From Pseudomonadota bacterium (GTDB lineage: Bacteria; Desulfobacterota; Desulfovibrionia; Desulfovibrionales; Desulfovibrionaceae), in the NCBI GenBank assembly GCA_018817515.1, contig JAHIUD010000044.1, positions 7,031 through 71,030 of the forward strand: DNA of 64,000 nt, read 5' to 3'. The position numbers were made by a program, and so were the translations under genes. Numbering within the stretch: the stretch's first letter is position 1; the number at the start of each line of letters is the position of its first letter. Below, piece by piece: positions 28,485-31,369 of this stretch. Below the pieces are notes generated by a model. That model did no database searches. It saw only the letters and a list, made by a program, of their open reading frames with translations, and had not been told where the DNA came from.

Positions 28485-29246
28485 ATGCGCATCATCTCGT
28501 GGAACGTCAACGGCTACCGCGCCGTGCTCCAGAAGGGCTTTGTGGACTGGCTGGCCGCCTGCGGGGCGGACGTGGTCATGCTCCAGGAGACCAAGGCCGA
28601 GCCGGAGCAGATCTCCGAGGCCGAGCGCGGCCCGGCGGGCTACGAGGGCCTGTGGAACTGGTCCAAGGGCCGCAAGGGCTATTCCGGCACGGCCTGCCTG
28701 TACAAAACCGAGCCTCTGGCCCACTCCTTTGGCCTGGGCGACCCGCGCTACCGGGGCGAGGGCCGGGTGGTGCACCTGGAGTACCCGGACTTCCACCTGT
28801 TCAACATCTACTTCCCCAACGGGCAGAAGGATGAGGAGCGCCTGGGCTACAAGCTCGGCTTTTACGACGCCTTTCTGGCCCAGGCCGAGGAGCTGCGCAA
28901 GGACAAACCCATCGTGGTCGGCGGCGACTTCAACACCGCGCACACCGCCATCGACCTGAAGAACCCCAAGGCCAACGAGAAGACCTCGGGCTTTTTGCCC
29001 ATCGAGCGCGCCTGGCTCGACAAGTTCGTGGCCCACGGCTACGTGGACACCTTCCGGCTGTTTGAGCCCGGCCCAGGGCATTATTCGTGGTGGAGCTACC
29101 GCTACAACGCCCGCATGAACAACGCCGGGTGGCGCATCGACTATTTTTTCGTGTCCGAGGAGCTGCGGGACCGGGTCAAGCGTGCCTGGATCGAGCCGGA
29201 TGTGCAGGGCTCGGACCACTGCCCGGTGGGTGTGGAGATCGTTTAG
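28485..29246 (+). CDS. xth: exodeoxyribonuclease III
   Basis: MRIISWNVNGYRA, VVMLQETK, GGDFNTAHT and SDHCPV. RBS GGAGGA. Confidence 0.93.
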   Translation: MRIISWNVNGYRAVLQKGFVDWLAACGADVVMLQETKAEPEQISEAERGPAGYEGLWNWSKGRKGYSGTACLYKTEPLAHSFGLGDPRYRGEGRVVHLEYPDFHLFNIYFPNGQKDEERLGYKLGFYDAFLAQAEELRKDKPIVVGGDFNTAHTAIDLKNPKANEKTSGFLPIERAWLDKFVAHGYVDTFRLFEPGPGHYSWWSYRYNARMNNAGWRIDYFFVSEELRDRVKRAWIEPDVQGSDHCPVGVEIV

Positions 29247-29269
29247 GGGTTCGGTTCGCTGGGAGGCAG

Positions 29270-29288
29270 GCCCGGCGCACGGCTGGGC
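29270..29288 (-). promoter_or_regulatory. candidate bacterial SECIS-like hairpin
   Basis: On the minus-strand RNA: UGA CAC GUC UAA GC-GCCCAGC-CGUGC-GCCGGGC. The stem has 6 pairs plus one A/C mismatch. The 5-nt loop places G and U at +23/+24 counted from the U of the UGA. Confidence 0.4.
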
Positions 29289-29290
29289 GC

Positions 29291-29524
29291 TTAGACGTGT
29301 CAGGCCCCGCGCTTGAAGCCGATCTCGACCTCGCAGTCCTTCACGACGACCGGGATGCGCCGCACACCATTGGTGAGCCGGAGCATTTCCTCAAGCAGCA
29401 GCGGGTCGGCCAGGACGTCAAGGAACACCGCCTCAGGCCAGGCCTCGCGGGCGCGCCTGGTGTGCGGGCAGCCGTCCTTGCCGTAGATGCGAATGGCGTC
29501 CTTGCCGATGGTGTCCTTGGGCAT
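29291..29524 (-). CDS. glutaredoxin-like protein, probable Uxx-stop selenoprotein (UGA at 29300..29302 read as Sec, true stop TAA at 29291..29293)
   Basis: Thioredoxin-fold ORF (IRIYGKDGCPHT ... RRIPVVV ... IGF). The annotated stop is TGA, followed in frame by CAC GTC TAA, giving a C-terminus ...KRGA-U-H-V. A SECIS-like hairpin follows. Confidence 0.55.
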
Positions 29525-29529
29525 GGCCC

Positions 29530-30417
29530 CTAAATAGTCTTGAGCAGGCTCGATGTATAGCTGTTGATGGTGCTGCTGGAGATATTATTCGCATAGTAGG
29601 TCTTGTAATTGCTTTCCTTGGCCTTGATGGCCGCCTGCACTTCGCTCAGCTCGAGCGTGCCATCCTTGTCCGTGTCCAGCTTGTCGAAGGCTGTGGTTGA
29701 AAGGGCGGCCTCGGTGCGGGACAGACTTCCGTCCTTGTCCGCGTCCTTGTTCGTGACGAAGCTGACTGCGGCCTTTGCGGAATACGTGCTGTCGCTTGCC
29801 GCGGGCGTGAGCTTGGTGTTCTCAAGCAGGCTTGCCAGCGTGTTGGAAATGCTGCTGCTGGTGCCATTGGTCTCGTAGAAGGCCTCTACGGTCGACTCCT
29901 GGTCCGTAAGGCCGGCGCGGATTTCCTTCTGGCTGAGCACGCCGTTGCCGTCCGTGTCCAGCTTGTCGAAGGCTTTCGCGGAGAGGCCTGCCTCGGTGCT
30001 GGAGAGAGTGCTGTTCCCGTCCTTGTCGTTTTCCTTGATGTACTTTGCGGCGGCGAGGTTGGCGTAGGTGTCCGTGAGCGAGCCTGCCGAGTCCTCGAGC
30101 AACGACGTGGTATTGTCGTTTTTGCTGCTGGCCTTCCTGTTCGTGTAGTATGCCTGGATGGCGGCATCCTGGCCCTTGAGGCCGTCCTTCATCTCCGAAA
30201 GGTCGATCTTGCCGTTCTTGTCGGCGTCGAGCTTGTCAAAGGCCTCCTGGGAAAGGGTGACCTCGTCGATGGTCAGGCACTTGTCCTTGTCCTTGTCGTT
30301 GTCCTTCACGTATTTGGCGGCGGCCAGATTGGAGTACGTGCCTTCGGGCAGGCCCGAGGTCGCGTCACCGTTGGCGTACATATACTGCAAGTTGGCCAGC
30401 TTGGGATTGATGCGCAT
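29530..30417 (-). CDS. EF-hand repeat protein (three ~80-aa tandem units, each with two DxDxDG-type loops)
   Basis: Start at MRINPK with GGGGGGAAAA upstream. Loops DNDKDKDKCLTIDE, DADKNGKIDLSE, ENDKDGNSTLS, DTDGNGVLSQKE, NKDADKDGSLS and DTDKDGTLELSE. The 608-aa ORF in the track was trimmed. Confidence 0.75.
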   Translation of the reverse strand: MRINPKLANLQYMYANGDATSGLPEGTYSNLAAAKYVKDNDKDKDKCLTIDEVTLSQEAFDKLDADKNGKIDLSEMKDGLKGQDAAIQAYYTNRKASSKNDNTTSLLEDSAGSLTDTYANLAAAKYIKENDKDGNSTLSSTEAGLSAKAFDKLDTDGNGVLSQKEIRAGLTDQESTVEAFYETNGTSSSISNTLASLLENTKLTPAASDSTYSAKAAVSFVTNKDADKDGSLSRTEAALSTTAFDKLDTDKDGTLELSEVQAAIKAKESNYKTYYANNISSSTINSYTSSLLKTI

Positions 30418-30561
30418 AATTTTCCCCCCTGGATGTTTGCTGCGTAGCGTGCAGAATTCGGGCCAGGGCGTGCGGCGGCAGAAAGCTCCCTTGCCAGCTT
30501 TGGCACGGCGGGCTATGTTTCGAGGTACCGTGCTAAACCCCATACCCAAGCGGAGCCTGTC

Positions 30562-31308
30562 ATGAAACGAGCGATGGTCCTGACCCTGGCGCTGAGCGTA
30601 TTTTCCACCCCGGCCCTGGCTGGCTGGGCCGATATGCTGGACAAGGTGCAGACGCAGCTGCCTGCGGCCTCTTCGTCCTCTTCCAGTGGCATCAACGCCA
30701 ACCTGTCCGAGCTCGACGCCAGCAAGGGGCTCAAGGAAGCCCTGGCCAAGGGCACCCAGAAGGCCGTGGCCGCGCTGGGCAAAAGCGACGGTTATTTCGG
30801 CAACCAGGCCGTGAAGATTCTGCTGCCCGAGTCGCTGCAGAAGCTGGAGACGCCCCTGCGCCTGGCCGGACAGGGCAAGCTTGTGGATGACCTTGTGCTG
30901 GCCATGAACCGCGCGGCGGAGAAGGCCGTGCCCCAGGCTGCGAACATCCTGGGCGATGCCGTGAAGAACATGAGCGTGCAGGACGCCAAGGGAATTCTCT
31001 CCGGACCGCAGGACTCCGCCACGCAGTATTTCCGCAAGTCCAGCGGAACGAAGATCGGCGAGATGATGCAGCCCATCATCACCAAGGCCATGGACAGCGT
31101 GGGCGTGGGCAAGGCCTTCAACAAGCTGGCCGCCAACCCGCTGGCCGCGGGCCTGGCCCAGAACTACGGCCTGGACCTGAACGGCTACGTCAACGCCAAG
31201 GCCCAGGACGGGCTGTTTACGCTCATCGCCCAGGAGGAGAAGAGCATCCGCGAAAACCCGGCTGCGCGCACCACGGAGATTCTGAAGAAGGTCTTCGGCG
31301 GGAGCTAG
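30562..31308 (+). CDS. DUF4197-like periplasmic protein
   Basis: Signal peptide MKRAMVLTLALSVFSTPALA. Composition and length match DUF4197 as recalled (GLKEAL...). Confidence 0.65.
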   Translation: MKRAMVLTLALSVFSTPALAGWADMLDKVQTQLPAASSSSSSGINANLSELDASKGLKEALAKGTQKAVAALGKSDGYFGNQAVKILLPESLQKLETPLRLAGQGKLVDDLVLAMNRAAEKAVPQAANILGDAVKNMSVQDAKGILSGPQDSATQYFRKSSGTKIGEMMQPIITKAMDSVGVGKAFNKLAANPLAAGLAQNYGLDLNGYVNAKAQDGLFTLIAQEEKSIRENPAARTTEILKKVFGGS

Positions 31309-31321
31309 GGGATAACAACAC

Positions 31322-31349
31322 GGCGGCCCGGACATCCGCCCGGGCCGCC
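31322..31349. terminator. GC hairpin between convergent genes (possible bidirectional terminator, weak U-tracts)
   Basis: ggcggcccgg-acatccgc-ccgggccgcc. Confidence 0.4.
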
Positions 31350-31369
31350 TCAACATTTGAAGTCAATCC

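Follow-up and report, generated by a model that had tools for sequence, protein, structure and literature searches.

The UXX-star families comprise small glutaredoxin-like (seleno)proteins, and they reportedly received their name in a paper by Haft and Tolstoy that appeared in mSystems in 2025. NCBIfam covers them with a parent model (NF041212, "Uxx-star family glutaredoxin-like (seleno)protein") and an equivalog (NF041114, "UXX-star selenoprotein family 1"), the latter having a curated cut-off of 72 bits. The NF041114 family is called "Distant Grx-like protein 1" in a 2026 review of the selenoproteome, where it is listed with a UxxT motif and two Sec per protein (PMC13188914). For the signal that directs Sec insertion in bacteria, the closest described system is the SECIS element of E. 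coli fdhF, which serves as the reference for bacteria and is located inside the coding region and possesses a bulged U17 and a GGUC loop. SelB contacts G23 and U24 of the SECIS loop, both in E. coli and in Moorella. As far as is known, termination competes with Sec insertion in all bacterial selenoproteins.

The window analysed here is a stretch of 64,000 nucleotides (contig C101, positions 7031-71030) from a Humidesulfovibrio-type groundwater MAG, the assembly of which totals 3.6 Mb in 114 contigs. It harbors a genuine member of this already catalogued selenoprotein family, truncated by routine ORF calling. The ORF, on the minus strand, is 74 residues long (29524..29300) and terminates in TGA (29302..29300). 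Continuing in frame, one reads CAC (29299..29297), GTC (29296..29294), and TAA (29293..29291), so that the read-through product would end in ...F-K-R-G-A-U-H-V. The full coding sequence, supported by the profile match and the AF2 model described below, occupies positions 29294..29524 of the minus strand and would run from Met1 to Ala74-Sec75-His76-Val77. The UGA at codon 75 (29300..29302), which ordinary gene callers treat as a stop, is the predicted Sec codon, and the TAA two codons past it (29291..29293) is the predicted true stop. A preliminary description of this locus had reported an end in TGA followed by CAC GTC TAA, a hairpin, and a gap of 5 nt to the preceding gene, all of which are present. 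The ORF list also contains a 148-residue frame antisense to the selenoprotein gene (29087-29533, plus strand), which looks like a high-G+C open-frame artefact. The sequencing runs holding the gene sequence are DNA metagenomes only; RNA runs with this sequence were searched for, and none was found.

The family assignment relies on a profile search against NCBIfam. The 74-residue form scores 77.9 bits against NF041114, and the 77-residue form, scored with U written as C, reaches 85.6 bits. The latter spans positions 1-70 of the 70 positions of the profile, the three residues past the TGA aligning to the profile end and raising the score by 7.7 bits. The second NCBIfam match is the parent model NF041212, while the Pfam Glutaredoxin model gives a marginal match (23.1 bits for a cut-off of 22.9). 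The family of glutaredoxin-like proteins with a Uxx-stop C-terminus, to which the preliminary description had referred, is thus real, being embodied in NF041212 and its equivalog NF041114, with the protein above the cut-off of the equivalog. Its close database relatives are from Humidesulfovibrio genomes and MAGs, and some near-identical Humidesulfovibrio proteins already carry the NCBI name "UXX-star selenoprotein family 1". Despite this name, their stored sequences end at the TGA. That the gene product is a selenoprotein of the NF041114 family, with 77 residues and a minimal glutaredoxin fold, is assigned a probability of about 0.9.

The AF2 model of the protein (mean pLDDT of 82) displays secondary structure elements in the order β-α-β-α-β-β, of the thioredoxin/glutaredoxin type. 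It is devoid of the final helix of ordinary glutaredoxins, and the tail (residues 74-77) is unstructured, with low model confidence. The top Foldseek matches are glutaredoxins and NrdH, namely an archaeal glutaredoxin, NrdH-redoxin, and clostridial glutaredoxins. NrdH-redoxin and the short clostridial and archaeal glutaredoxins (PDB ID: 1h75, 7c10, 3ic4), the nearest solved folds with TM values of 0.62-0.70, are likewise small thioredoxin-fold redox proteins, of 75-90 residues. They possess a CxxC dithiol and a C-terminal helix, whereas the UXX-star protein exhibits a CxxT motif, no final helix, and a Sec-containing tail.

With the NF041114 family, the protein shares the length class (about 70-77 residues), the glutaredoxin-like fold, the C-terminal G-x-U-x-x-stop, and a SECIS hairpin right after the stop codon. 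The difference resides in the active-site-type motif, G-C-P-H-T (residues 18-22), where Cys replaces the Sec of the N-terminal U-x-x-T listed for the family. Since all same-genus members share C-P-H-T and NCBI still names them family 1, this motif is a Cys variant and no ground for exclusion from the family. Two-Sec members from other genera display G-U-P-Y-T ... U-G-V-stop, whereas the present protein and about 20 same-genus relatives display G-C-P-H-T and the C-terminal Sec only. The same-genus members conform to G-C-P-H-T ... R-G-[AS]-U-[HRQSL]-[VILA], with tails U-H-V, U-H-I, or U-R-L in this protein and its relatives. The other-genus members mostly conform to G-U-P-Y-T ... G-G-[TSA]-U-G-[VCI], with the second Sec in the first motif and U-G-V as their tail. 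Loci L012, L014-L022, and L024 belong to other genera or families of the same order, and most members found outside the genus have two in-frame TGAs. Locus L013 carries a Cys in the first motif together with a U-G-C tail, and a paralogue (L045) combines a C-P-F-C dithiol motif with a U-M-V-stop tail.

Sixty related genomes were searched with the family model, reading through stops, and 31 of them yielded a match over the family cut-off. G002, a single 3.0-Mb contig, is the sole case without a family-model match among 21 same-genus genomes. The endings were counted over the 33 family members having a readable 3′ end. All 33 show a TGA at the aligned position, then exactly two sense codons, then a stop, which is TGA in 15 of them, TAG in 12, and TAA in 6. 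At the C-terminal position, the residue remains small and in most cases aliphatic, 31 of the 33 members having Val, Ile, or Leu, and nine different codons, among them all four for Val, are used there. As a background, the next in-frame stop falls at codon +3 in 1.7% of 3,451 long TGA-terminated frames of this genome. This uniform ending, reached with varied stops and synonymous codons, indicates that the two codons are selected as codons and the stop as a stop. The homologues, therefore, do not simply end at the TGA, and the earlier proposal that read-through adds Sec-His-Val gains support from the codons at 29302..29291 and from the same layout in the 33 homologues. No Cys aligned to the C-terminal Sec was found among the 33 family members, and the weaker matches of the family model are ordinary CxxC glutaredoxins in which the tail is absent. 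With no Cys-for-Sec homologue among the relatives examined, the classical Sec/Cys pair is lacking at the C-terminal site. Such a pair is present at the N-terminal motif, U-P-Y-T in other genera versus C-P-H-T here. Taken at the level of sequence comparison, the TGA of this glutaredoxin-like gene is almost certainly read as Sec, with a predicted product ending in Sec-His-Val.

The genome was examined for the selA, selB, selC, and selD genes, and it is equipped for Sec decoding. The selA (576 bits, C61:14663-16087) and selB (381 bits, C61:17569-19470) matches are both over the cut-off and lie on the same strand of contig C61, about 1.5 kb apart. A selD gene (324 bits) is also over the cut-off and contains one in-frame TGA, and a tRNA-Sec with the anticodon UCA is found on contig C77 (aragorn: tRNA-SeC(tca)). 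As selA, selB, selD, and tRNA-Sec are all in the genome, the organism can decode UGA as Sec. The selD gene is located outside the window (C31:12708-13640, locus L009), its TGA being embedded in the context ...GVRAAG-U-AAKVAPGDL.... Given this in-frame TGA, SelD is itself a selenoprotein here. The hairpin 3′ of the selD TGA, GCUCCAGG-GGA-CCUGGAGC, has a G-rich loop without G-U, which suggests that loops of more than one type are tolerated by SelB in this organism.

Past the TAA, the 3′ untranslated region contains a hairpin (29270..29288, minus strand) that is predicted to be the SECIS element on the grounds of covariation, geometry, energy, the published bSECIS constraints, and comparison with fdhF. 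It reads GCCCAGC / CGUGC / GCCGGGC and spans +15..+33, counted from the U of the UGA. The stem joins +15..+21 with +27..+33 through six Watson-Crick pairs and an A·C mismatch at +19/+29, and the loop CGUGC occupies +22..+26, with G at +23 and U at +24. Two possible extra pairs, A12-U35 and G13-C34, would extend the hairpin (29268..29291). Concerning the SECIS-like hairpin of the preliminary description, the fold and the coordinates were correct, but the A·C mismatch went unmentioned. Its statement that G and U occupy the same positions in E. coli fdhF agrees with a direct count on the K-12 gene (UGA CAC GGC CCA UCG GUU GCA GGU CUG CAC C). Both elements, hence, have a stem starting at +15 and a loop G-U at +23/+24, and in both a CAC codon directly follows the UGA. 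In contrast with the fdhF element, that of the window is wholly in the 3′ untranslated region and displays a CGUGC loop and a GC-rich, seven-position stem with the A·C mismatch.

According to the bSECIS model, the apical loop comprises 3-9 nt and tops an upper stem of 4-16 bp, one of its first two nucleotides is a G, with G or U as the usual next nucleotide, 16-37 nt separate the UGA from the loop, and the MFE does not exceed -7.5 kcal/mol (PMC13188914). When these constraints, taken from Fig. 2 of that review, were applied by hand, the hairpin was found to lie within all of them. It possesses a 5-nt loop, a seven-position stem (six pairs and the A·C), and a G at position 2 of CGUGC with U next; the spacing is 18 nt (+4..+21), and the MFE amounts to -8.3 kcal/mol for the 19-nt hairpin, -9.7 kcal/mol for 25 nt, and -10.5 kcal/mol for a 35-nt local segment. 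Covariation was evaluated at the seven pairs of the window hairpin in an alignment (A1) of 29 loci, each represented by the 40 nt starting at the UGA. Standard pairs fill 87.1% of the cells, whereas sliding the 3′ partner by 1-3 columns leaves 28-48%, and compensatory changes, affecting both sides, are seen at five of the seven pairs. The covariation score is 0.495 versus 0.166 ± 0.028 in shuffles, and none of the 500 shuffles reaches it. An apical loop G-U is found at +21..+27 from the U of the UGA in 27 of the 29 sequences, the loops being CGUGC in the same genus and mostly GGUC elsewhere.

This genome contains 189 hairpins that have the same loop and at least six of the seven pairs, which, over 7.2 Mb, corresponds to one per roughly 38 kb of strand. 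Among these 189, only that at 29288..29270 is found at SECIS distance behind a TGA closing a plausible protein. A genomic repeat was considered as the source of the hairpin and rejected, the five other hairpins located behind open frames having low-complexity, antisense-type translations. In run X2, a contig of a related strain lacks 13 nt at 29250 and 1 nt at 29265 and has gained 1 nt after 29289. The 3′ untranslated region, therefore, varies in length between strains, the gene being kept.

One alternative is that adopted by gene callers and most database entries, namely that the TGA is a plain stop. The product would then be a 74-residue monothiol glutaredoxin-like protein ending in ...KRGA, and the hairpin, located where the selenoprotein gene and the convergent xth gene are separated by 44 nt, would be an mRNA-stabilising or terminator-type stem-loop. 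The downstream xth gene is present in only some loci. A terminator is difficult to reconcile with the absence of a U-tract 3′ of the hairpin and with a terminator scan that finds nothing there. Folding of the single sequence 29240..29305 gives an MFE no better than shuffles (z = 0.6), and an Rfam scan of 28900..29900, with E up to 10, returned no SECIS family, its only output being a chance lncRNA match (E = 3.9). These two results fit a plain stop, and on their account the SECIS case rests on the comparison with relatives and not on folding energy; short bacterial SECIS hairpins are evidently not captured by Rfam. The MFE alternative, in which the His-Val codons (CACG) pair with the loop (CGUG), was discarded, relatives with CACAUC, CGCCUC, or CGCAUC breaking it and keeping the hairpin. 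It is this comparison that a plain stop leaves unexplained: a TGA-two-codons-stop ending in 33/33 members for a chance level of 1.7%, two codons conserved as amino acids with synonymous variation, and a fixed distance between hairpin and TGA, with a loop G-U, across several bacterial families. Moreover, the curated model itself contains the three extra positions, with which the score increases by 7.7 bits. A plain stop is, accordingly, regarded as highly improbable.

Another reading retains the family selenoprotein and questions its expression in this species: the SECIS, crippled by the A·C mismatch, would leave the 74-residue form as the main or only product, the selenoprotein being on its way to loss. 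The pair at +19/+29 is G-C in 26 of 29 relatives, and the nearest of them (L031) differs in its stem only by a G at +19. Compared to L031, the mismatch costs about 6 kcal/mol, bringing the hairpin from -14.5 to -8.3 kcal/mol. An assembly error is ruled out as the source of the A·C, as runs X1, X2, and X4, each from a different study of groundwater or other metagenomes, contain contigs that are identical over this stretch. The mismatch is, therefore, a real allele, fixed in these contigs, and its persistence in three independent samples says little either way about the fate of the selenoprotein. Even so weakened, the hairpin passes the -7.5 kcal/mol threshold of the bSECIS model, and its stability exceeds that of the 17-nt minimal element of fdhF (-4.2 kcal/mol), which is functional. 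An A·C mismatch is also seen in the relative L038, where it affects another pair. Furthermore, no change affects the loop or the two closing pairs presenting G23-U24, and the two codons past the TGA and the stop are undamaged. A selenoprotein on its way to loss is, hence, considered quite unlikely. Sec insertion is, accordingly, probably retained despite the mismatch, although possibly less efficient, given the cost to the stem.

For the 77-residue selenoprotein, a decoding route modelled on that of fdhF may be proposed. With the ribosome at UGA75, the hairpin, 11 nt further, would still be folded at the mRNA entrance, as in fdhF, and its loop would present G23-U24 to SelB·GTP·Sec-tRNA(Sec), the UGA being in the A site. 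Sec would then be inserted, followed by His and Val, and termination would occur at the TAA, the hairpin being situated in the 3′ untranslated region, just past this real stop. We infer that SelB binds the hairpin and that Sec-His-Val is added; a 74-residue product, arising from termination at the UGA, would be expected to compete with Sec insertion.

As to the function of the Sec residue, the second Cys of the usual CxxC is replaced by Thr, yielding C-P-H-T, and Sec is located on the tail, directly preceded by the last strand and by a conserved glycine, which forms part of R-G here and of G-G in other genera. Because C-P-H-T lacks the second Cys, the final helix is absent, and Sec is on a flexible tail, it is this tail (G-A-U-H-V) that probably supplies the second redox partner. 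The motif and the fold suggest a redox pair in the form of a Cys19-Sec75 selenenylsulfide. The arrangement is reminiscent of the Gly-Cys-Sec-Gly tail of animal thioredoxin reductase, in which Sec is also 2-3 residues from the C-terminus of a flexible tail and is believed to exchange redox equivalents with a buried thiol centre. Thioredoxin reductase, however, is an unrelated large flavoenzyme with a eukaryotic SECIS, and its partner Cys is adjacent in the tail, whereas that of the UXX-star protein would be in the CxxT motif, about 55 residues away. The likeness is, thus, a mechanistic analogy and not homology. Ligation of a metal or metalloid by the Cys/Sec pair is a published alternative, the 2026 review having speculated on metal binding (PMC13188914).

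Upstream, the ATG at 29524 starts 5 nt (GGGCC) past the TAG stop (29532..29530) of a gene encoding an EF-hand triple-repeat protein of 295 residues (29530..30417, minus strand), the probable first gene of a two-gene operon. An EF-hand homologue is found directly upstream and on the same strand in 19/19 same-genus loci (the window, L023, and L025-L041, with 37-68% identity) and in none of the 12 other-genus loci. The 5-nt gap and the same gene order in all 19 loci make it likely that the EF-hand and UXX-star genes are co-transcribed. Outside the genus, no conserved neighbours of the family were found within ±1.5 kb in the 12 loci. A 608-residue frame listed in this region (29530-31356, minus strand) looks like another high-G+C open-frame artefact, the real EF-hand gene starting at 30417 and a separate plus-strand gene occupying 30562-31308. 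The adjacency of the two genes in all same-genus loci and in none elsewhere raises the speculative idea, held to be rather doubtful, that the single-Sec protein of Humidesulfovibrio (Cys-P-H-T ... Sec-His-Val) serves the EF-hand protein as a dedicated partner, the two forming a possible calcium- or metal-linked redox pair or a selenium-handling pair. If true, such a pair would be undescribed for the UXX-star family. The EF-hand neighbour may in any case be taken as a genus-specific lead to function.

Little is new in the identity of the family, since it has a curated model, appears by name in NCBI annotation, and figures in the 2026 review. The locus matters mainly for annotation, since the Sec, which is probably the active residue, is lost when ordinary gene callers, like most database entries for the family, stop the protein at the TGA. 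It also illustrates cleanly how a bacterial SECIS can lie entirely beyond the coding region and, being thus unconstrained, display textbook covariation at the spacing of E. coli fdhF. To the family as known, the analysis adds the Cys variant of the first motif in the genus, the covariation evidence for a wholly 3′ untranslated SECIS, a species-specific stem mismatch, and a conserved EF-hand neighbour. The EF-hand neighbour and the Cys-for-Sec exchange at the first motif are leads, and they leave unchanged the picture of a catalogued family served by the standard Sec machinery.
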